A stretch of DNA of 64,000 bases from Minisyncoccota bacterium (GTDB lineage Bacteria; Patescibacteriota; Minisyncoccia; Phycocordibacterales; SBAW01), in assembly GCA_018060985.1 (NCBI GenBank), contig JAGOUZ010000003.1, positions 47,356 through 111,355 of the forward strand, in the 5' to 3' direction. Under the pieces are notes generated by a model, which searched no databases, had not been told where the DNA came from, and saw nothing but the letters and a program-made list of their open reading frames with translations. Positions 1,086 through 51,465 of the stretch are shown in pieces; the stretch's first letter is position 1, and every line of letters begins with the position of its first letter. Position numbers and translations under genes: made by a program.

Positions 1086-1162
1086 GTTGACTCCCTCTCT
1101 TGTTTCAACGCATACTGCCCGCCAGACCAGTCTGCCAATATGGCTTCAAAGGAGGAACTAGC

Positions 1163-2083
1163 ATGCTCGAGAATCTGCAGCTGATTCACCGGGGCAAGAC
1201 CCGCGACACCTACCGGGCTAAGTGGTCTAGCCCGAACGACACCCGTCGGCCGCCGCGCCTCATCGTCGCGAGCGACCGCATCTCGACCCACAATATCGTG
1301 CACCAAAGCACGATCCCCAAGAAGGGCGAGGTCTTGACCGCACTGACCGTGCGGTGGATTGAGGATCTTCGTGGTGAGGATATCGACACTCACCTCATTG
1401 CCTTCGGCAAAAATATCTACGATTACCTGCCAGGGAAGGAGGGCGACTACCCGAAGAATTTTCATCACCGGGCAATCGTGGTGAAGGATCTCGACATGAT
1501 CCCGGTCGAATTTATCTACCGGGCGTACCTGTGCGGAAGCCTGTGGGACAAGTATTACAGCAAGGGGCTCGAGAATCCTTACGGGATTAAGTTGGGCCCC
1601 GATCTGCCGCTTATGTATCGGTTTACCCGACCGATCTTCACGCCGACGGAAAAGTCGGACACCGACGAACCCCTGAATCACCTGAAGACACATGAGGAGT
1701 ACAGGGCGGTATCGGAGATCGGGCGGTCTGTTCTCACGTTTGTTCAGAGAGTACTGAGGCGTACTGGTGTTGAAATGATAGACACCAAGCTCGAGTTTGG
1801 TGTCGACGAGCATGGCGCGCTCGTTCTCGCCGACGAAGTGTTGACCCCCGACAGCAGTCGGTTTGTCCGGCGTAAGGATATTAGGGAGGGGGAGAACCCG
1901 CCCTGGCTCGATAAGCAGGTTGCGCGGGACTGGGCGGAGAAGAAGTGGGCAGGCGGACTCAAAGAGCCACTCATCTTTCCACCCATGACCATCAACCAGC
2001 TCAAGGAGACCTATGTTGATCTCTTTGAGATGGTGAGTCGCATGTCGCTCTCGCAGTTCCAGCGCGAAGTGCTTGACCAGTAG
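1163..2083 (+). CDS. purC: phosphoribosylaminoimidazole-succinocarboxamide (SAICAR) synthase
   Basis: PurC motifs GKTRDTY, SDRISTHN, VEFIYRAYLCGS, DTKLEFG, LTPDSSRF; AAGGAGG RBS before ATG at 1163 (ORF track begins at in-frame ATG 1100); flanked by terminators. Confidence 0.85.
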   Translation: MLENLQLIHRGKTRDTYRAKWSSPNDTRRPPRLIVASDRISTHNIVHQSTIPKKGEVLTALTVRWIEDLRGEDIDTHLIAFGKNIYDYLPGKEGDYPKNFHHRAIVVKDLDMIPVEFIYRAYLCGSLWDKYYSKGLENPYGIKLGPDLPLMYRFTRPIFTPTEKSDTDEPLNHLKTHEEYRAVSEIGRSVLTFVQRVLRRTGVEMIDTKLEFGVDEHGALVLADEVLTPDSSRFVRRKDIREGENPPWLDKQVARDWAEKKWAGGLKEPLIFPPMTINQLKETYVDLFEMVSRMSLSQFQREVLDQ

Positions 2084-4532: not shown

Positions 4533-4913
4533 ATGATCCAACCTCAGACTATAGTCGTCATAGCAGACAACTCCGGAGCAAAGCTCGGACGCATTTTCAA
4601 AGTGCTCGGCAGCTCAAAGAAGCGCTATGCGCAGATCGGTGAGATTGTCGTGCTTTCCGTACAGACGGCAGAGCCTCGCAAAGCGGTTAAAAAGAAGGAC
4701 GTGCTCCGCGCTGTAGTGGTGCGCCAGAAGCAGGCATTCCGCCGCAAAGACGGTTCATATATTCGCTTTGATGAAAATGCAGTCGTCATCATTGAAGGAG
4801 CTGGCAAGAATGCACACGAGCCAAAGGCAGGACGCATCTTCGGTCCTATACCGCGCGAGCTCCAGGACCTTGGCTACCAGACCATTATTTCTCGTGCGCC
4901 TGAAGTCGTATAA
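4533..4913 (+). CDS. rplN: 50S ribosomal protein L14
   Basis: MIQPQTIVVIADNSGAK... L14. Confidence 0.95.
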   Translation: MIQPQTIVVIADNSGAKLGRIFKVLGSSKKRYAQIGEIVVLSVQTAEPRKAVKKKDVLRAVVVRQKQAFRRKDGSYIRFDENAVVIIEGAGKNAHEPKAGRIFGPIPRELQDLGYQTIISRAPEVV

Positions 4914-4917
4914 ATGT

Positions 4918-5175
4918 ATGAATACTCTCCACGTTAAAAAAGGCGACACTGTAGTGGTAATCTCCGGTGTACACAAAGGTAAGACCGGCAAGATAGTAGA
5001 GGCAATGCCAAAGCTCGGCCTCGTACTTGTAGAAGGTGTTGGCATGGTTAAAAAGCACCAGCGCCCTCGCCGCGACGGTCAGAAGGGTCAGATTATCGAC
5101 AAGCATGTGCCGATCCGCGCAAGCAAGGTTATGAATGTTGCGCTTCAGAAAGAGCGTGCAAAGAAGAAAAAATAG
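4918..5175 (+). CDS. rplX: 50S ribosomal protein L24
   Basis: KOW motif LHVKKGDTVVVISGVHKGKTGKI; start at ATG 4918 just after the rplN stop. Confidence 0.9.
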   Translation: MNTLHVKKGDTVVVISGVHKGKTGKIVEAMPKLGLVLVEGVGMVKKHQRPRRDGQKGQIIDKHVPIRASKVMNVALQKERAKKKK

Positions 5176-5178
5176 TAT

Positions 5179-5724
5179 ATGGCTACCACAAAACTTTTAC
5201 AGGACCAGCAGAAGTCAGCTTTTAAAGATCTCAAAGACACCTTTGGGTGGACTAACTCTATGCAGACGCCCCGCATCGAAAAGGTGGTTGTCTCGGTTGG
5301 CGTTGGCAAGATGGCAAAAGAGAAGGGCCGTCAGGATATGGTGGCAAACCGCCTCTCAAAGATTACCGGCCAGAAGGCAGCTACTCGCGGTGCCAAGAAG
5401 GCTATTGCAACCTTTAAGACCCGCATCGGTGACCGTGTTGGCTACCAGGTAACGCTCCGTGGCGCACGTGCACAGGACTTTTTGAACCGCCTCGTGCACA
5501 TCGCACTCCCTCGCACCAAAGACTTCCGCGGCATCTCTGCCGATGCTATTGATGAGATGGGTAACTACACTCTTGGTATTAAAGAAAACACGGTGTTTCC
5601 AGAAACTGCAGACGAAGAACTTAAGGATGTGTTTGGTATGGCAGTAACGATTGTGACAACCGCTAAGAACAAGGCAGAGGCAAAGGCCTACCTAACCCAC
5701 CTCGGGTTTCCGTTTAAGAAATAA
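5179..5724 (+). CDS. rplE: 50S ribosomal protein L5
   Basis: 181-aa L5-like ORF. Confidence 0.95.
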   Translation: MATTKLLQDQQKSAFKDLKDTFGWTNSMQTPRIEKVVVSVGVGKMAKEKGRQDMVANRLSKITGQKAATRGAKKAIATFKTRIGDRVGYQVTLRGARAQDFLNRLVHIALPRTKDFRGISADAIDEMGNYTLGIKENTVFPETADEELKDVFGMAVTIVTTAKNKAEAKAYLTHLGFPFKK

Positions 5725-5740
5725 TCAGACGGGATACAAG

Positions 5741-5776
5741 AAAGGCCTTGCGGTTCATTCCGCAAGGCCTTTTTTC
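5741..5776. terminator. bidirectional hairpin/terminator after rplE
   Basis: AAAGGCCTTGCGG-ttcattc-CCGCAAGGCCTTTTTT; the stop codon of the antisense ORF lies in its loop. Confidence 0.6.
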
Positions 5777-6036
5777 ATCAGTCGCTCAGCTTCTGCTCGA
5801 TCCACTTCGTATCCCGAGAAACACTCGACAGGGCCATAGTCGAGGAGGCAGACACAGGTATCTTTATCACCGCAGTACTCCTCGTCGAAGGCCCAGGCGA
5901 TATAACGCCCGTCACTGGTGAGCATTAGGTGGTCTCCTTGGTGGTGCTCGGGCAGCAAGCAGGGAGGGAAGTCGTCCCCCTCACGCATGTACATTACTTC
6001 GAAGAAGGGTATGAGAATTCCGCAGGTTTCTCGCAT
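5755..6036 (-). CDS. hypothetical small Cys/His-containing protein encoded antisense inside the r-protein cluster
   Basis: 93-aa ORF MRETCGILIPFFEVMYMREGDDFPPCLLPEHHQGDH...CGDKDTCVCLLDYGPVECFSGYE with GGGAG SD-like element 7 nt upstream; G/C-ending codon usage unlike flanking r-protein genes; occupies the atypical 515-bp rplE-rpsN gap (ORF track extends it to 6270). Confidence 0.35.
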   Translation of the reverse strand: MRETCGILIPFFEVMYMREGDDFPPCLLPEHHQGDHLMLTSDGRYIAWAFDEEYCGDKDTCVCLLDYGPVECFSGYEVDRAEAERLMKKGLAE

Positions 6037-6239
6037 GCAGTATCTCCCTAGATAGAGCAAAACTGAGACCACTATAGCAAATAGACCCCTATTTGACTTA
6101 TAGAGCCCTATCGCGTATATTCGTGTCAGCCCATTCAGGGCTCCTTTTTTCTGATAGGTGCCGCTTAGTCGAAAGGCGAGGCAAACCGGCAGAATCATAA
6201 CCTCTAAAGGACGAAAGTAAGGGGGTAAACCATCCACGT

Positions 6240-6425
6240 ATGGCAAAAAAGTCCACAGTTGCACGCTCAAACAAGCCCCCGAAATTTAAGTCGAGGGTTG
6301 TTCGCCGTTGCTTCCGCTGCGGCCGTAAGCGCGCCTTTATGCGTGACTTTGGTATGTGCCGCGCCTGCTTCCGTGAAGCGGCAAACGAAGGACTTGTTCC
6401 GGGCGTTAAGAAATCATCATGGTAA
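6240..6425 (+). CDS. rpsN: 30S ribosomal protein S14, zinc-binding type Z
   Basis: 61 aa with CxxC...CxxC ([20 protein letters not shown]). Confidence 0.9.
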
Positions 6426-6805
6426 CCGACCCTATCGCAGACTTTTTGGTTCGCTTGAGAAACGCGGGAATGACCGGCAAAGAGTTTGTCGTAATACCTG
6501 CATCTAAGATGACGACCGCCCTCGCAAACCTTCTTGAGAAAGAGGGTTATGTGAAGGAAGTTTCTAAACAAAAGAAGAATAATTCCTTTACGATTACGCT
6601 CGCCTACAAAAATGGCCGCCCGGTTATCACCGGCTCAAAGCGCATTTCAAAGCCATCACGCCGCATGTACATGGGTGTACGCGAAGTACGTCCGGTTAAG
6701 CGCGGTCACGGTCTTTTGGTCCTCTCGACGCCGGCTGGCGTTTTGACCGGCAAAGAGGCTCGCGAAAAGCGTGTCGGTGGAGAAGCCCTGTTCGAAATTT
6801 GGTAA
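6419..6805 (+). CDS. rpsH: 30S ribosomal protein S8
   Basis: [16 protein letters not shown]... S8. Confidence 0.95.
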
Positions 6806-6809
6806 TTAT

Positions 6810-7343
6810 ATGTCACGTCTTGCTAAACGCCCCATCGTTATACCTGCCAAAACCGAGATAACCGTTAAGAACGGTGAAATCGAGGTTAAGGGCCCAAAGG
6901 CCACGCTTACTCGCGAGGGTAATCGTCTTATTGCTGTTGAAGTAGGTGCAGAAGGCGTACAGGTTTCAACTAAGTCAGATACGCTCGAGGCAAAGGCATT
7001 GCTCGGCACCTACGCCTCCCACATCCGCAACATGATTGAGGGCGTTACCAACGGCTTTGTTAAGAAGCTTCTCATTGAGGGCGTTGGCTACAAGTGGGAT
7101 GTTCAGGGCAAGACGCTCAACCTCGCACTTGGTTTTTCTCACCCGGTTAAAGTAGCAATCCCTGAAGGTCTTACCGTAACAATCGAAAAGGGAGTACTTT
7201 CAATTGCCGGCCCAAATAAAGAAATCGTCGGTCAGTTTGCAGCAAATATCCGTGCACTCAAAAAGCCTGAGCCGTACAAGGGCAAGGGTATCCGCTTTGA
7301 GGGTGAGGTTATCCGCCGCAAGCAGGGTAAGAAAGCCGCATAA
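6810..7343 (+). CDS. rplF: 50S ribosomal protein L6
   Basis: L6 two-domain sequence; start at ATG 6810 (MSRLAKRPIVIP) after the rpsH stop. Confidence 0.95.
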   Translation: MSRLAKRPIVIPAKTEITVKNGEIEVKGPKATLTREGNRLIAVEVGAEGVQVSTKSDTLEAKALLGTYASHIRNMIEGVTNGFVKKLLIEGVGYKWDVQGKTLNLALGFSHPVKVAIPEGLTVTIEKGVLSIAGPNKEIVGQFAANIRALKKPEPYKGKGIRFEGEVIRRKQGKKAA

Positions 7344-7706: not shown

Positions 7707-8330
7707 ATGGTAGATACTAACGAAAAAGAGGTAGAAGCAGTTAAGGCCGCCGGAGAGGCGGAGGCAGTTGCAGTACCTGCAGAGGCCGTAGCGGCTGCGC
7801 CTGGAGCAGCTCCTGCTGCACCTGATCAGCGTGGTCGCCGTGGCCGTGGAGATCGCCGTGGAAGCCGTGGCAATGCGCCTCGCGCCCGTCAGGAGCGCAA
7901 GAGCGAGTACGATCAGAAGATGATCAATATCCGCCGCGTAGCCCGCGTGGTTTCAGGTGGTCGCCGCTTCTCATTTAGCGTTTCTATCATCATTGGTAAC
8001 AAGAAGGGCAAAGTTGGCGTAGGCGTTGGCAAGGCAGGGGACACCACTCTCGCTATCGACAAGGCAGTACGCAATGCAAAAAAGCACCTTATTACCGTAC
8101 CTCTTACGAAAGACAACTCAATTGCTCACGATGTTAAGGCAAAGTACTCAGCTTCAATCGTAAGCATGATGCCAGCCCATGGCCGCGGTTTGGTGGCAGG
8201 TTCGTCAGTACGCCCGGTTCTCGAGCTTGCTGGTGTGACCAACATTATTGCCAAGGTACACTCGGGCAGCAAAAATGGTCTTAACAATGCTCGCGCAGCT
8301 ATCGAAGCGCTTAAGTCGCTTAAAGCGTAA
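7707..8330 (+). CDS. rpsE: 30S ribosomal protein S5 with ~45-aa Ala/Arg-rich N-terminal extension
   Basis: S5 core preceded by low-complexity AVAVPAEAVAAAPGAAPAAPDQRGRRGRGDRRGSRG. Confidence 0.95.
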   Translation: MVDTNEKEVEAVKAAGEAEAVAVPAEAVAAAPGAAPAAPDQRGRRGRGDRRGSRGNAPRARQERKSEYDQKMINIRRVARVVSGGRRFSFSVSIIIGNKKGKVGVGVGKAGDTTLAIDKAVRNAKKHLITVPLTKDNSIAHDVKAKYSASIVSMMPAHGRGLVAGSSVRPVLELAGVTNIIAKVHSGSKNGLNNARAAIEALKSLKA

Positions 8331-8336
8331 ACTTTT

Positions 8337-8765
8337 ATGCAGCTCAACGAACTCAAAAGAAAAACTTCAAATCGTAAGCAGAAGCGCGTAGGTCGCGGTC
8401 GCGGCTCCGGCAAAGGCAAAACCTCTGGTCGTGGTACCAAGGGTCAGAAGGCGCGCGCTGGTCACAAGATGATGCCGGCTATCCGCGAGCAGCTCAAGAA
8501 GCTTCCTAAGAAGCGCGGTTACAGCTTTAAGAGCATCAAGGATAAACCAACGGTTCTTAACGTTGCAACGCTTGAACGTTACTTTACGGCAGGCGACACT
8601 ATCAGCCCTGCAGTGCTTGTAGAGCGCGGCCTCCTCGTTAAGGGACATCCGGTTAAGATCTTGGGCGATGGCGAACTTGCTAAAAAACTTACTATTTCGG
8701 GCTGTGCAGTGTCTGCTTCTGCCCGTACAAAAATTGAAAAGGTGGGTGGTTCAGTGGTAGTGTAA
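8337..8765 (+). CDS. rplO: 50S ribosomal protein L15
   Basis: Gly/Arg-rich L15 N-terminus; follows rpsE directly with no L30 gene between. Confidence 0.95.
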   Translation: MQLNELKRKTSNRKQKRVGRGRGSGKGKTSGRGTKGQKARAGHKMMPAIREQLKKLPKKRGYSFKSIKDKPTVLNVATLERYFTAGDTISPAVLVERGLLVKGHPVKILGDGELAKKLTISGCAVSASARTKIEKVGGSVVV

Positions 8766-10128: not shown

Positions 10129-10701
10129 ATGGGTACGCTGATACTGATTGTCGGCTTACCAGGAAGCGGAAAAGGAACCCTCATTAAGTACGCGCGGGAA
10201 GTGTTTCCGGATTTTATATATCCAGCATCCTGGACTACCCGCGCAATGCGACCCGGGGAAGTAGAGGGAGAGGTATATCACTTTGCAACCAAGGAAGAAT
10301 TTGATGCAGCGGTAGAGCGCGGCGAATTTTTAGAGTGGGTTACGATCGACAACGGAAGTCAGTACGGCACGTTAAAAAAAGATTTTATTGAGCCGCTCAA
10401 AGCAGGGAAGCATGTCTTGCGCGAACTTGAAGTTGAAGGTGCTCGGGCGATGCGCAGCCTGCTGCCTGAGGCGCGCATTGTAAGTATCTTTTTGCCGGCT
10501 GGTACGTGGGAAGACCTAGAGGCGCGAATGCTCGCACGTGCTCCTATGAGCGAAGAAGAGCTTGCTGCCCGCAAAGCTCGGTATGAAAAAGAAGTCGCCT
10601 TTGAACAAGAAGCAGACCATGTGCTCAAAAATGAGTTCGGCAAACTTGATGAGACCAAGCAAAAGTTCGAAGAGCTTATTCGCAAAATCGTTCAAAATTA
10701 G
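10129..10701 (+). CDS. gmk: guanylate kinase
   Basis: P-loop GLPGSGKGT plus guanylate-kinase signature TTRAMRPGEVEGEVYHF. Confidence 0.85.
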   Translation: MGTLILIVGLPGSGKGTLIKYAREVFPDFIYPASWTTRAMRPGEVEGEVYHFATKEEFDAAVERGEFLEWVTIDNGSQYGTLKKDFIEPLKAGKHVLRELEVEGARAMRSLLPEARIVSIFLPAGTWEDLEARMLARAPMSEEELAARKARYEKEVAFEQEADHVLKNEFGKLDETKQKFEELIRKIVQN

Positions 10702-17512: not shown

Positions 17513-17890
17513 TGGTGGAAGTGGGCGGAGTTGAACCGCCGTGCAACACAAAAACTCAAAACATATCTACGAGAGGTAGACTACTTTAATTTCTTAGGCT
17601 CAATTGTAGAAAGTAGACAAAATAGGATTGAGTCGCAGCCTCTTAGTCTCAACTACAGAGCAAGACAGACTCTGTAGTCATAGCCCGTTATATAACACCC
17701 GCACCCAGAGCCGGGCTCGCTGGGGCAGACGTGACCTTAGGCGCGCGCAGTGGCGAACGAAAGATCATTCACCGAGAAATACGGTGACGTAACTGATTTT
17801 GCAGTTATGGTTTGAAGTTTTTTATAGCAGATCTCCACTGCTCTCCCGCATGTAATGCGAATATATGTATTGTCTAAGCCTGTCACTCCC
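17513..17890 (-). ncRNA. ssrA: tmRNA (SsrA), 378 nt
   Basis: Minus strand: 5' GGGAGUG pairs with 3' CACUUCC-A-CCA including G3:U70; T-arm GGCGG-UUCAACU-CCGCC (same loop as E. coli tmRNA); encoded CCA; intrinsic terminator immediately downstream; internal ORF GCA...UAA (plus coords 17802-17737) gives tag AKSVTSPYFSVNDLSFATARA; same strand as and downstream of smpB. Confidence 0.75.
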
Positions 17891-50072: not shown

Positions 50073-50144
50073 CGCGGGGTGGAGCAGTAGTAGCTCGCCA
50101 GGCTCATAACCTGGAGGTCGGGGGTGCAAGTCCCTCCCCCGCAA
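50073..50144 (+). tRNA. initiator tRNA-fMet, anticodon CAU
   Basis: C1:A72 mismatch (CGCGGGG/CCCCGCA) typical of bacterial initiator; anticodon loop CUCAUAA; terminator hairpin 50158-50180. Confidence 0.8.
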
Positions 50145-50293
50145 CAGACATTCGTAAGGGTCCGCTTAGGCGGACTTTTGCGTTGAAGAAAAAGGTGAAA
50201 AATGATAGCGTAGTGCTATTGTCGGGATAAGCAAAGCTTGCCCCGACGGCATTCGGACTAAAAGCACACGAGTGCGCTTTTAGCTCCTCATTT

Positions 50294-50367
50294 GTCGGGG
50301 TAGCTCAGCTGGTAAGAGCGTAGCATTCATAACGCTAAGGTCGTGGGTTCGACTCCCACCCTCGACA
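50294..50367 (+). tRNA. tRNA with CAU anticodon (elongator Met or Ile2/lysidine)
   Basis: Acceptor GUCGGGG/CCUCGAC, loop UUCAUAA, T-loop UUCGACU; A31:C39 mismatch in the anticodon stem. Confidence 0.75.
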
Positions 50368-50494
50368 CCCGTTTCGCTTTAACGCCTTTTGCGTTAAGAT
50401 ACGGACGTTCGAAACAGTTTGCGGGGTAAGCATAGCTTGCTCCCGCGGCATTCGACGGCATAATGAACGAGTTCATTCTGTTCGGTTCTCATTT

Positions 50495-50569
50495 GCGGGA
50501 GTAGCTCAATTTGGTTAGAGCGCGTCCCTGTCACGGACGAGGTTGCGGGTTCAAGTCCCGTCTCTCGCG
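50495..50569 (+). tRNA. tRNA-Asp, anticodon GUC
   Basis: Acceptor GCGGGAG/CUCUCGC, anticodon loop CUGUCAC, T-loop UUCAAGU. Confidence 0.85.
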
Positions 50570-50594
50570 CAAATTCACATGATAAAATAGGGGT

Positions 50595-50732
50595 ATGGAC
50601 GCCATCACCAACATACTCACGATGCTCCTTAACTTTTTGTTGAGTTTTTTGGAGCTGTTTATAAACTTTATAATCACTGCGCTCACCATGGTGCTTAATT
50701 TTGTTAAGGCGATAGTTGGTACTGTGGTCTAG
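50595..50732 (+). CDS. hypothetical 45-aa hydrophobic peptide
   Basis: MDAITNILTMLLNFLLSFLELFINFIITALTMVLNFVKAIVGTVV; 2 nt upstream of the next ORF. Confidence 0.3.
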   Translation: MDAITNILTMLLNFLLSFLELFINFIITALTMVLNFVKAIVGTVV

Positions 50733-50734
50733 TC

Positions 50735-51037
50735 ATGCGTATGTCTAAAAAGTCCCGAATTATAGTCGCAGTGGTGTGGGGGATACTGACGCTGCCCACC
50801 GCGTTTTTTGCCATGGTGCTCTTTGGATTGGCTCGTATGGATACGGGCTCTGTAAACCCTGAGCCGCAGTTACTTGCACTGTGGGCACTGCCTGTCGTGC
50901 TCCTCGTTTCTTGCATTGCAGAACTTATGCTTGCACGCGGGGCTGATACCCGCAGCAAAGCTGGGCTTGCAAAAGTCTTCGCTTTTTTACCGGTAGGGAA
51001 TATTCTTATAATCGCAGTACTTATTTTGGCTCGGTGA
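50735..51037 (+). CDS. hypothetical small membrane protein (100 aa)
   Basis: Three predicted TM helices. Confidence 0.45.
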   Translation: MRMSKKSRIIVAVVWGILTLPTAFFAMVLFGLARMDTGSVNPEPQLLALWALPVVLLVSCIAELMLARGADTRSKAGLAKVFAFLPVGNILIIAVLILAR

Positions 51038-51180
51038 GCGATTGAAAAAAGCCTTAAAATACGCTACTCTGCGGAAGTTACTTGTTTGTCGTGCACATAT
51101 CCGCCGTTGTAAGCAAAGCTTGCAACGACTGCATTCGTAAAAAATGAAAATATAGGATATTCTCATTTTGTTACTCATTT

Positions 51181-51253
51181 GCCGTTGTAGCTCAGTTGGT
51201 AGAGCAACGCCATGGTAAGGCGTAGGTCGCCGGTTCGATTCCGGCCAACGGCT
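51181..51253 (+). tRNA. tRNA-Thr, anticodon GGU
   Basis: Acceptor GCCGUUG/CAACGGC, loop AUGGUAA, T-loop UUCGAUU; CCA encoded (51254-51256). Confidence 0.85.
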
Positions 51254-51258
51254 CCAGG

Positions 51259-51285
51259 CCAGAGTAGCTCAGTTGGATGAACAGC
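51259..51285 (+). pseudogene. tRNA 5' fragment (acceptor 5' strand plus D-arm remnant)
   Basis: GCCAGAGTAGCTCAGTTGG matches tRNA-Thr(CGU) 5' end 18/19, then diverges into a 110-nt hairpin-rich segment. Confidence 0.4.
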
Positions 51286-51392
51286 AAACTGCTTTGCGGT
51301 TCATCCGATTCTGCTTTGCAGAAACGGCTGTTGTTCATTATTATGAACCGGCAGTAGGAGGGACGAGCGGCGCCTATTTTAGTTGCGTGAGA

Positions 51393-51465
51393 GCCGGAGT
51401 AGCTCAGTTGGTAGAGCGGCGGTATCGTAAACCGCAGGTCGCCGGTTCAATCCCGGCCTCCGGCT
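51393..51465 (+). tRNA. tRNA-Thr, anticodon CGU
   Basis: Acceptor GCCGGAG/CUCCGGC, loop AUCGUAA, T-loop UUCAAUC. Confidence 0.85.

Follow-up and report, generated by a model that had tools for sequence, protein, structure and literature searches.

We analysed a stretch of 64,000 nucleotides (hereafter the window; contig JAGOUZ010000003.1 of assembly GCA_018060985.1, positions 47,356 to 111,355) from the metagenome-assembled genome of an uncultured bacterium of the candidate phyla radiation (class Paceibacteria, labeled Candidatus Pacebacteria), and focused on the interval between rplE and rpsN, two neighboring genes of the spc cluster of ribosomal-protein genes. An earlier note, made by reading the letters of this DNA, had reported that the normally contiguous rplE-rpsN junction is interrupted by 515 bp, that rplE is followed by a strong hairpin terminator, and that the opposite strand of the gap carries an open reading frame (ORF) for a small Cys/His protein. 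It proposed that either a novel gene had been inserted, splitting the spc operon into two transcripts, or the gap holds regulatory RNA. The gap proved to be exactly 515 bp (5725-6239), compared with 5-55 bp at the same junction in outgroups (Nitrospirota, Portnoybacteria, Ryanbacteria, Magasanikbacteria). The gene and the RNA are not alternatives: we found that the gap holds both a minus-strand gene and a conserved leader upstream of rpsN.

The features of the locus are listed in Table 1. The rplE product is 70-90% identical to its counterparts in related Paceibacteria. The rpsN product has 61 residues and is the zinc-type form of uS14, with a CxxC...CxxC arrangement. The rpsN stop codon overlaps the rpsH start codon (ATGGTAA), which would permit translational coupling of the two genes.

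Table 1. Features of the rplE-rpsN locus in the window, and the loci of the six closest homologues of the small protein (P, family proteins; L, loci in relatives).
Feature	Position	Strand	Evidence or remark
rplE (uL5)	5179-5724	+	Pfam Ribosomal_L5 7e-16, Ribosomal_L5_C 9e-31; final gene of the upstream ribosomal-protein unit
Predicted bidirectional intrinsic terminator (rplE on +, small gene on -)	5741-5775	both	fold energy and U-tails
Small Cys/His protein gene	5755-6036	-	homologues, synteny, dN/dS, Shine-Dalgarno sequence; 93-residue product
Shine-Dalgarno sequence AGGGAG	6044-6049	-	7 nt upstream of the ATG at 6036
Candidate extended -10 element TGCTATAGT of the small gene	6073-6081	-	found by eye in the sequence; putative
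Predicted promoter of the rpsN-rpsH-rplF... unit	6093-6121	+	TTGACT, 17 nt, TATATT; 10/12 consensus positions
Conserved rpsN leader (motif A)	6126-6202	+	about 75 nt; conserved blocks, covariance model
Third leader hairpin, variable	6200-6226	+	ACCUCU...AGGGGGU; predicted fold
rpsN (uS14)	6240-6425	+	Pfam Ribosomal_S14 1.7e-20; first gene of the downstream unit
rpsH	6419-6805	+	Pfam Ribosomal_S8
P0002	loci L083 and L084	antisense in gap	L083 on a 648-kb contig
P0006	loci L081 and L082	antisense in gap	
P0005	locus L085	antisense in gap	
P0007	locus L086	antisense in gap	
P0004	locus L088	antisense in gap	rplE end off the contig
P0003	locus L098	antisense in gap	

The minus strand of the gap encodes a 93-residue protein

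One minus-strand frame is open for 171 codons, from a TTG at 6270 to 5755, and an internal ATG at 6034-6036 gives a product of 93 residues. We conclude that the 93-codon ORF is a genuine gene under purifying selection and not a chance ORF. Divergence from the closest orthologue (locus L083, 61% identity) was 0.27 at nonsynonymous (dN) and 2.05 at synonymous sites (dS), a ratio of about 0.13 with dS saturated. The plausible Shine-Dalgarno sequence of the earlier note has counterparts in all five orthologues examined, each with a motif of the GGAG or GGGG type 6-10 nt before the ATG. The G/C-rich third codon positions described before were also borne out: GC content by codon position is 0.63/0.38/0.62, a gene-like periodicity that resembles the long ORFs of the window (0.59/0.42/0.57). 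The codon-usage score of the ORF is -0.035, compared with a mean of 0.30 for the genes, and exceeds that of 94% of off-frame windows. For transcription of the gene we can point to the candidate extended -10 element; the consensus promoter scan, in which a -35 box is required, did not detect it. L083 and L088 have similar elements, of the form TGCTAnnnT, at 25-35 nt before the ATG.

Homology to other members of the family spans residues 1-5 to about 90, which places the start at the ATG at 6036. The deposited annotation has a shorter product here. Entry KBD50_01910 is a 56-residue hypothetical protein (5755-5925, minus strand) identical to residues 38-93, with its start at M38. It omits 37 N-terminal residues, which contain the peptide ETCGILIPFFEVMYMR and four conserved Cys and His residues (C5, C26, H32 and H36). 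Because conserved residues lie upstream of M38, we regard the deposited product as a shortened form. That only the C-terminal 56 codons are translated would agree with the listed product and with the codon scores of the two parts (0.07 for the last 56 codons, -0.20 for the first 37). Against this, homologue alignments begin before M38, the four omitted residues are among the most conserved of the family, the Shine-Dalgarno sequence sits before the ATG at 6036 as it does in the orthologues, and residues 1-40 are modeled at a predicted local distance difference test (pLDDT) score of 79-94 in the alignment-based structure described below. We therefore consider the shorter product very unlikely.

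The earlier note had also judged that the 5' part of the longer frame (6037-6270) is probably non-coding or promoter DNA, and this held. The 78 codons upstream of the ATG have a codon score of -0.19 and no periodicity, overlap the conserved rpsN promoter and leader as well as the start of rpsN, and are common to no homologue. The 171-residue reading of the frame was rejected on the codon scores and the overlap with the conserved leader. Taken together, the two remaining ways to deny the 93-codon gene (that the ORF is a non-coding accident in a gap holding only regulatory RNA, or that the true gene is the 171-codon frame from the TTG at 6270) seem to us extremely unlikely. The first could appeal to a word-index protein search in which the 93-residue product matched the genome's own entry alone, and the second to the frame running on to 6270. 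Both are opposed by other results: an exhaustive search yields a family of homologues, selection on the ORF is purifying, the upstream codons score negatively and coincide with conserved elements of rpsN, and where homologues have longer N-termini these are unrelated, with the tblastn matches in that part tracking nucleotide conservation of the leader.

The product belongs to a family of small Cys/His proteins

A homology search of the 93-residue product, which the earlier note had suggested as a check, returned 62 homologues at E≤1e-3 (HMMER, exhaustive scan of 1.84 billion cluster representatives), nearly all of them 73-129 residues long. The phmmer E-values against family members ranged from 1e-34 to 1e-4, and a translated scan of metagenome contigs independently gave a full-length relative at 43% identity. 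A word-index search with the family profile found the genome's own entry and seven family members. Given the 62 homologues found with HMMER, we attribute this low yield to the index and not to a lack of relatives.

We aligned 34 family sequences. Their median length is 90 residues (typically about 80-95), with a median isoelectric point of 4.6 and a median of six cysteines; the window protein is likewise acidic (isoelectric point 4.4). C26, H36 and C72 are invariant in all 34 sequences, C5, H32, W48 and C63 each occur in 32 or more, and C61 and C55 in 26 and 22, respectively. The conserved core thus consists of six cysteines, two histidines and one tryptophan, with eight candidate ligands in about 70 residues spaced C5...C26-x5-H32-x3-H36...C55-x5-C61-x-C63-x8-C72. 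The window protein carries all of the family motifs: an N-terminal C-G-x-x-x-P, then C-L-L-x3-H-x-G-x-H-L, G-x-Y-x-x-W, C-x-C and E-C-F, and a C-terminal E-A-x-x-L helix. Two members, P0049 (255 residues) and P0038 (173 residues), have long N-terminal extensions without a Pfam match, indicating that the Cys/His module can be the C-terminal domain of larger proteins.

The small protein probably binds a metal, likely zinc, given a conserved Cys6His2 core in a cytoplasmic, acidic protein of 10 kDa. The Cys/His pattern, which the earlier note had found compatible with a small metal-binding domain, stands in that these residues are the conserved core of the family; the protein is not a classical zinc ribbon or knuckle, which we define by two CxxC or CxxH pairs, as there is no CxxC pair in the protein. 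The protein resembles zinc ribbons, treble clefs and ZAS anti-sigma motifs in its shortness and in having Cys and His as its most conserved residues, but it lacks the paired CxxC knuckles and the HxxxCxxC of such small zinc modules.

The window protein had no match in Pfam or PHROGs at E≤10, or in NCBIfam or PADLOC at E≤0.1. When the 34 family members were compared with Pfam, NCBIfam and PADLOC, there were just scattered single matches with E-values of 0.03 or weaker. There was no match in the Protein Data Bank sequence set and no relative in the viral contigs searched. Where the sources name family members, they call them "hypothetical protein".

A structure predicted by AlphaFold from the single sequence was unusable (pLDDT 45) and did not enter the fold search. 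With the family alignment, the prediction reached a pLDDT of 86.7 and a predicted template modeling score of 0.74. The model combines a sheet of three strands with an extended segment at the N-terminus and a helix at the C-terminus. A Foldseek search with this model gave nothing at E<1e-3. The best structural neighbor was PipX, a small Tudor-like regulator of cyanobacteria, at a score under the usual significance level and 17% identity. PipX is without the Cys/His cluster of the small protein, and we take the likeness as a weak resemblance, not as family membership.

A hairpin between the convergent genes is a predicted terminator on both strands

The strong terminator proposed after rplE was confirmed as a prediction. 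The hairpin has a GC core of 10 bp, formed by GGCCTTGCGG (5744-5753) and CCGCAAGGCC (5760-5769) around a loop at 5754-5759, and A-U pairs lengthen the core to the stem AAAGGCCTTGCGG/CCGCAAGGCCTTT. On the plus strand it has a predicted fold energy of -31.8 kcal/mol (z = -8.9 compared with shuffled sequences) and is followed directly by T6 (5770-5775). A GC-rich hairpin with a direct U-run, the pattern used here to recognize intrinsic terminators, is thus present at 5741-5775. On the minus strand the fold energy is -28.7 kcal/mol (z = -7.9) and the tail is TTTCTTGT. With a U-rich tail on both strands, the hairpin could work in both directions. We infer that in vivo it would end the transcripts of both rplE and the small gene. 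Bidirectional terminators between convergent genes have the same build: a single GC-rich hairpin between two convergent stops, with a U-rich tail for either strand.

The final six codons of the small gene and its stop lie within this stem-loop, with the stop codon (5755-5757) in the loop. A coding end inside a terminator stem-loop is unusual, though not unknown. Most of the orthologous loci examined have a short run rich in T after the stop of the small gene, just ahead of the rplE stop.

The closest homologues lie beside rplE

The six closest homologues (38-61% identity) are all found in the rplE-rpsN gap, on the strand opposite the ribosomal genes (Table 1). Wherever the end of rplE is on the contig, that is, in all but L088, the small gene and rplE are convergent and their stops are a few tens of bases apart. 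Further genes lie between the small gene and rpsN in L081 and L088, which makes the 3' end of rplE the constant neighbor. In L098, on a short metagenome contig, there are two tandem paralogues adjoining rplE (230-505 and 574-858, both on the plus strand).

The rplE-rpsN junction is an old breakpoint of the spc cluster

Dozens of genomes of related Paceibacteria have a gap between rplE and rpsN, the smallest of 111 bp and the largest of over 4 kb. The gap is occupied by a variety of genes. By eye from translations, we recognized an ORF resembling extracytoplasmic-function (ECF) sigma factors, with a partner, in ten loci, a P-loop helicase-like ORF in eight, and HicA/HicB-like ORFs in L004 (5556-6068, minus strand). 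Pfam matches identified a ParE/YafQ-like toxin with a ribbon-helix-helix antitoxin in L081 (3416-3904, minus strand). L002 (4565-4849, minus strand) and L006 (4589-4891, minus strand) encode homologous predicted membrane proteins of 94-100 residues that have no Pfam match, and L008 (4587-4913, minus strand) has an antisense ORF of 108 residues that does not cluster with them. The gap of L045 contains a near-perfect hairpin of about 150 nt (4572-4720), to which Rfam gives spurious matches of microRNA precursors.

Because the break is common to most of the related Paceibacteria sampled and its occupants vary, the comparison of these loci indicates an old breakpoint and not a recent insertion. 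The word "inserted", used in the earlier note, was misleading in this sense, and the small gene itself is present at the junction in several diverged lineages. The proposed split of the spc cluster fared better: the cluster carries signals of two transcription units, a predicted terminator after rplE and a separate predicted promoter before rpsN.

A predicted promoter and a conserved leader precede rpsN

Beyond the small gene, the remaining 200 bp of the gap are occupied by a predicted promoter and a non-coding leader. We scanned for sigma-70-type promoters (-35 box TTGACA, -10 box TATAAT, spacing 16-18 nt), and the site at 6093-6121, which fits this type, was the sole promoter-like site in 5000-7000. 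It stands back to back with the putative promoter of the small gene. L001-L004, L006, L008, L083 and L088 keep the sequence TTGACT...CGCGTATATT, and in each its spacing to the leader is unchanged. From the -10 box to the first hairpin of the leader there is a constant 6-8 nt in all loci, and with this fixed spacing the rpsN transcript is predicted to start at that hairpin, P1.

The leader, which we call motif A, was aligned from 13 loci (the window, L001-L008, L081, L083, L085 and L088), in all of which it lies upstream of rpsN at a fixed position. It consists of P1 (6128-6142, AGCCC/GGGCU), an invariant CUCCUUUUUU tract, a second, long and interrupted hairpin, P2 (6149-6194), and AAUCAUAAC. 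P2 has the form UUCUG-[N-N-A]-GGU-[variable hairpin]-A-N-ACC-[N1-3]-CAGAA and carries an invariant bulged A (6156) and an A-N bulge (6183-6184). The inner hairpin of P2 occurs in five sequence versions and two longer ones (with insertions in L006 and L085), with the junction nucleotides unchanged. A third hairpin is present in most relatives with compensatory variants (CCUCU/AGGGG, CUUCC/GGGAG and CUCCC/GGGAG); it is absent in L081, where AAUCAUAACC runs straight to the ATG.

In the alignment of the leader made with MAFFT, 91% of cells at the proposed pairs can pair, compared with 34-54% when partners are slid. There are compensatory changes at two pairs, from G-C to C-G in four sequences and from C-G to U-A in one. 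The covariation score was above that of shuffled alignments in 499 of 500 trials, with sequences that are closely related. A covariance model of these sequences, R1, scored 58-100 bits at a single match in each locus, which was upstream of rpsN throughout, and had no other convincing match in 710 kb. Rfam (4227 families) had no match over 6037-6239, even at E≤10. We regard the secondary structure as plausible and not statistically established.

Two other readings of the leader were rejected, and a third was not adopted. The element GCCGC-UUA-GUC/GGC-GA-GGC was considered as a kink-turn; such a turn needs G-A in the bulged strand, which here has UA, and this part is replaced by plain hairpins in L004, L081 and L085. 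For a leader peptide or other small ORF there is no ATG to start from, and every frame is disrupted by indels in L004 and L006. Finally, a switch was considered in which the anti-Shine-Dalgarno-like CUCCUUUU tract pairs with GGGGAG of the third hairpin; this pairing is possible in several loci, but we did not adopt the switch because L081 is without the third hairpin.

Comparison with the S8 site and with other ribosomal leaders

In E. coli, S8 controls the whole spc operon by binding the start of rplE, where the mRNA mimics helix 21 of 16S rRNA (PMC4176348; PMC3616713), an element that is confined to Gammaproteobacteria (PMC3616713). The S8 site is a helix with an odd-numbered internal loop of conserved nucleotides, and needs the A595-(A596-U644) and (G597-C643)-U641 triples and an invariant A642 (PMC4176348). 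Here, too, the spc cluster is concerned, and the detached unit has rpsH in second place. In its predicted fold, P2 of the leader resembles the S8 site in part: two helices are separated by an asymmetric internal loop and a 2-nt bulge with an invariant unpaired A next to G-C pairs, in the strand order of the E. coli mRNA site. Its core is CUG-[N-N-A]-GGU paired with ACC-[N1-3]-CAG; an invariant A takes the third position of the loop, and the number of loop bases is odd in most loci, not all. Unlike the E. coli site, the leader lies upstream of rpsN rather than at rplE.

More distant Paceibacteria proved to have a conserved leader of another kind before rpsN (motif B; 25 loci, for example L045:4739-4843, L033:5683-5787 and L057:5910-6014). 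A TTGAC...TGCTAGTAT promoter is followed by a 5'-terminal hairpin ACCUC...GAGG, which covaries with ACCUU...AAGG, and then by GAUUGGAAGC, a variable hairpin, GCUAACCAAUC and a U-rich tract. Motif B has no match in Rfam. The motif A model matches no motif B locus, so we rejected homology of the two and treated them as separate elements. We also considered a likeness between AUUGGAAGC of motif B and AUUGGAAAC, a strand of B. subtilis helix 21. The equivalent of A642 would be a G, and we judged the likeness coincidental.

Motif A resembles the ribosomal leaders of Rfam and of two published surveys (PMC7247131; PMC3616713) in being a conserved 5' untranslated region (UTR), with a predicted structure, just upstream of a ribosomal-protein operon. 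Like them it has invariant junctions and variable helix tips, and it is confined to one lineage, as most of them are. The survey with 20 new leader candidates (PMC7247131) does not mention rpsN, rpsH, Parcubacteria or Patescibacteria, and names S14 once, in passing, in its section on L31. The literature searched held nothing for Patescibacteria or Parcubacteria on a split spc operon or on leaders of ribosomal-protein genes.

Other features of the window

In an Rfam scan of the window, only a transfer-messenger RNA (tmRNA) gene (17513-17890, minus strand, 90 bits) and tRNA genes reached the gathering score, and no rRNA was found. Five tRNA genes are clustered within 1.4 kb (50073-51465, plus strand). 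The purC gene (SAICAR synthetase, Pfam 3e-49; 1100-2083, plus strand) interrupts the super-operon a second time: it lies within the S10 ribosomal cluster and in its orientation, between rplB (193-1041) and rpsS (2241-2618). This arrangement is shared by L083 and L084, with purE adjoining. The rpsE gene (7707-8330, plus strand) encodes an N-terminal extension of about 60 residues rich in Ala, Pro and Arg, with a local GC content of 0.70 at 7750-7899. Directly after it comes rplO (8337-8765, plus strand), so that the two genes do not have rpmD (L30) between them; candidate-phyla-radiation genomes are known to lack L30. An ORF resembling guanylate kinase (10129-10701, plus strand) lies between secY and adk, in the same order as in L083 and L085.

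Interpretation

We think it probable, with moderate confidence, that the gap is an old breakpoint of the spc cluster that holds two back-to-back modules, the small gene on one side and the promoter of rpsN with a cis-regulatory leader on the other. In the proposed scheme, the upstream ribosomal unit would end after rplE, and the small gene would be transcribed toward rplE from its own promoter and end at the hairpin common to both. Transcription of rpsN, rpsH, rplF and the subsequent genes would begin at the 6093-6121 promoter. The leader would act as a cis-regulatory RNA that gives the detached half-operon its own feedback control, most likely through binding of a ribosomal protein encoded downstream, and P1, at the predicted 5' end, would probably protect the mRNA. 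An operon that is cut after rplE would lose an arrangement of the E. coli S8 type, for which a new operator before rpsN and rpsH would be a natural replacement. We give about even weight to the possibility that the leader is bound by one or another of the proteins of the operon. If one had to be named, S8 would be the best guess, and even so would be an unlikely partner when taken alone.

Several observations weigh against this scheme or parts of it. Covariation in the leader is thin, with double changes at just two pairs and an effective sequence number of 2.3, and the fold energy of the single sequence is unremarkable (z = -0.39). P1 with its U6 (GAGCCC/GGGCUC) looks like a terminator and fits a productive leader poorly; a role of P1 as insulator or attenuator is also possible. 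Of the S8 site, the leader has neither the AAG/CU core nor the A595-(A596-U644) triple, and it does not keep the orientation of the G597-C643 pair. On the side of the small gene, codon usage is atypical, the score being under that of 99% of in-frame windows of resident genes. Distant members of the family (P0008-P0010, P0032, P0033 and P0037) are in unrelated neighborhoods and not beside ribosomal genes, which argues against an obligatory link to the ribosome; one distant member is convergent with rbfA. The small gene was found in none of the 80 species-representative loci fetched with rplE, including the closest ones, L001-L008. The gaps of L001-L008 hold unrelated sequence, so the gene is dispensable. 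The earlier note had named absence or lack of conservation in relatives as grounds for doubting the ORF; it is absent from L001-L008, and conserved with synteny among its closest homologues.

The conserved stretch before rpsN could be just a promoter and a plain 5' UTR, in which P1 and the U-run either insulate rpsN against transcription from upstream or stabilize the 5' end of the mRNA, and there is no specific protein or ligand and no feedback. A hairpin that follows the -10 box by 6-8 nt would mark the 5' end of the transcript, a placement that is typical of stabilizing stem-loops, such as that of the E. coli ompA leader. The hairpin here likewise begins at the predicted +1 of the rpsN transcript, and it may have a similar function. 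The match of P1 to the terminator pattern, the weak covariation and the dispensable third hairpin all agree with a plain UTR. In contrast, the junctions of P2 (NNA, GGU/ACC, the bulged A-N and AAUCAUAAC) are invariant and its tip is free to vary, which is typical of a specific binding site, and a different, equally conserved element at the same place in distant Paceibacteria suggests selection for a specific function. We consider the plain UTR possible and rather doubtful, and a cis-regulatory leader the better reading.

For the small gene, the main alternative is that it is accessory cargo in a variable slot, unrelated to ribosomes, at a breakpoint that tolerates insertions and offers a ready terminator. 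Such cargo could be an immunity, antitoxin-like or anti-phage protein, or a sensor of redox state or metal. The slot has unrelated occupants among relatives, including toxin-antitoxin pairs, the antisense membrane proteins of L002 and L006 and, in the closest representative (L001, rplE 90% identical), an unrelated plus-strand membrane ORF. The distribution of the small gene is patchy, it is duplicated in tandem in L098, its codon usage is atypical, and its distant relatives lie elsewhere. Its divergence is fast and does not follow that of the flanking ribosomal proteins: in L088 the small protein is just 47-51% identical where rpsH is 94% identical, and in L083 the values are 61% and 79%. Against cargo, there was no PADLOC, PHROG or Pfam match, and no consistent partner gene, adjoining mobile-element genes or repeats, or viral homologue. 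The six closest homologues share position and orientation despite 38-61% identity, which is unexpected for freely moving cargo. We regard cargo as a serious possibility that falls somewhat short of an even chance.

The fixed place of the gene beside rplE across this range of identity hints at a link with the ribosomal cluster, as do the acidity of the protein, opposite to that of ribosomal proteins, and its Cys/His core beside a gene for zinc-type S14. In the strongest form of this idea, the small protein would be a lineage-specific, ribosome-linked factor that is kept beside rplE for that reason, and motifs A and B would be new operators that evolved after the spc break. It might, for instance, be dedicated to escorting one of the basic ribosomal proteins, such as uL5 or the zinc-type uS14, or to supplying it with zinc, or it might act in ribosome assembly or silencing. 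We consider this combined proposal improbable.

As far as the tools used can tell, the small-protein family, its conserved position and the leader are undescribed. What the locus would add is a protein family and a candidate ribosomal leader, both of them new and both within familiar categories. Bacteria of the candidate phyla radiation have tiny genomes and unusual ribosomes, and control of their ribosome production is almost unstudied. In a large lineage of Paceibacteria, the otherwise very stable spc cluster appears to be permanently split, and its downstream half to have its own promoter and leader. This leader is a concrete candidate for a new feedback element of ribosomal proteins, and there is a second, different one in sister lineages. 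The protein represents a rare acidic Cys/His family that has no annotation or structural neighbor, yet a confident predicted fold, and whose closest members are anchored at the 3' end of rplE. The shortened 56-residue annotation, and the family being missed by the word-index search, suggest that the small proteins of such genomes systematically escape full description. If the protein is not linked to the ribosome, it would be an ordinary hypothetical gene in a variable slot; if it is ribosome-associated, or if the leader binds S8 or S14, either would be new biology.

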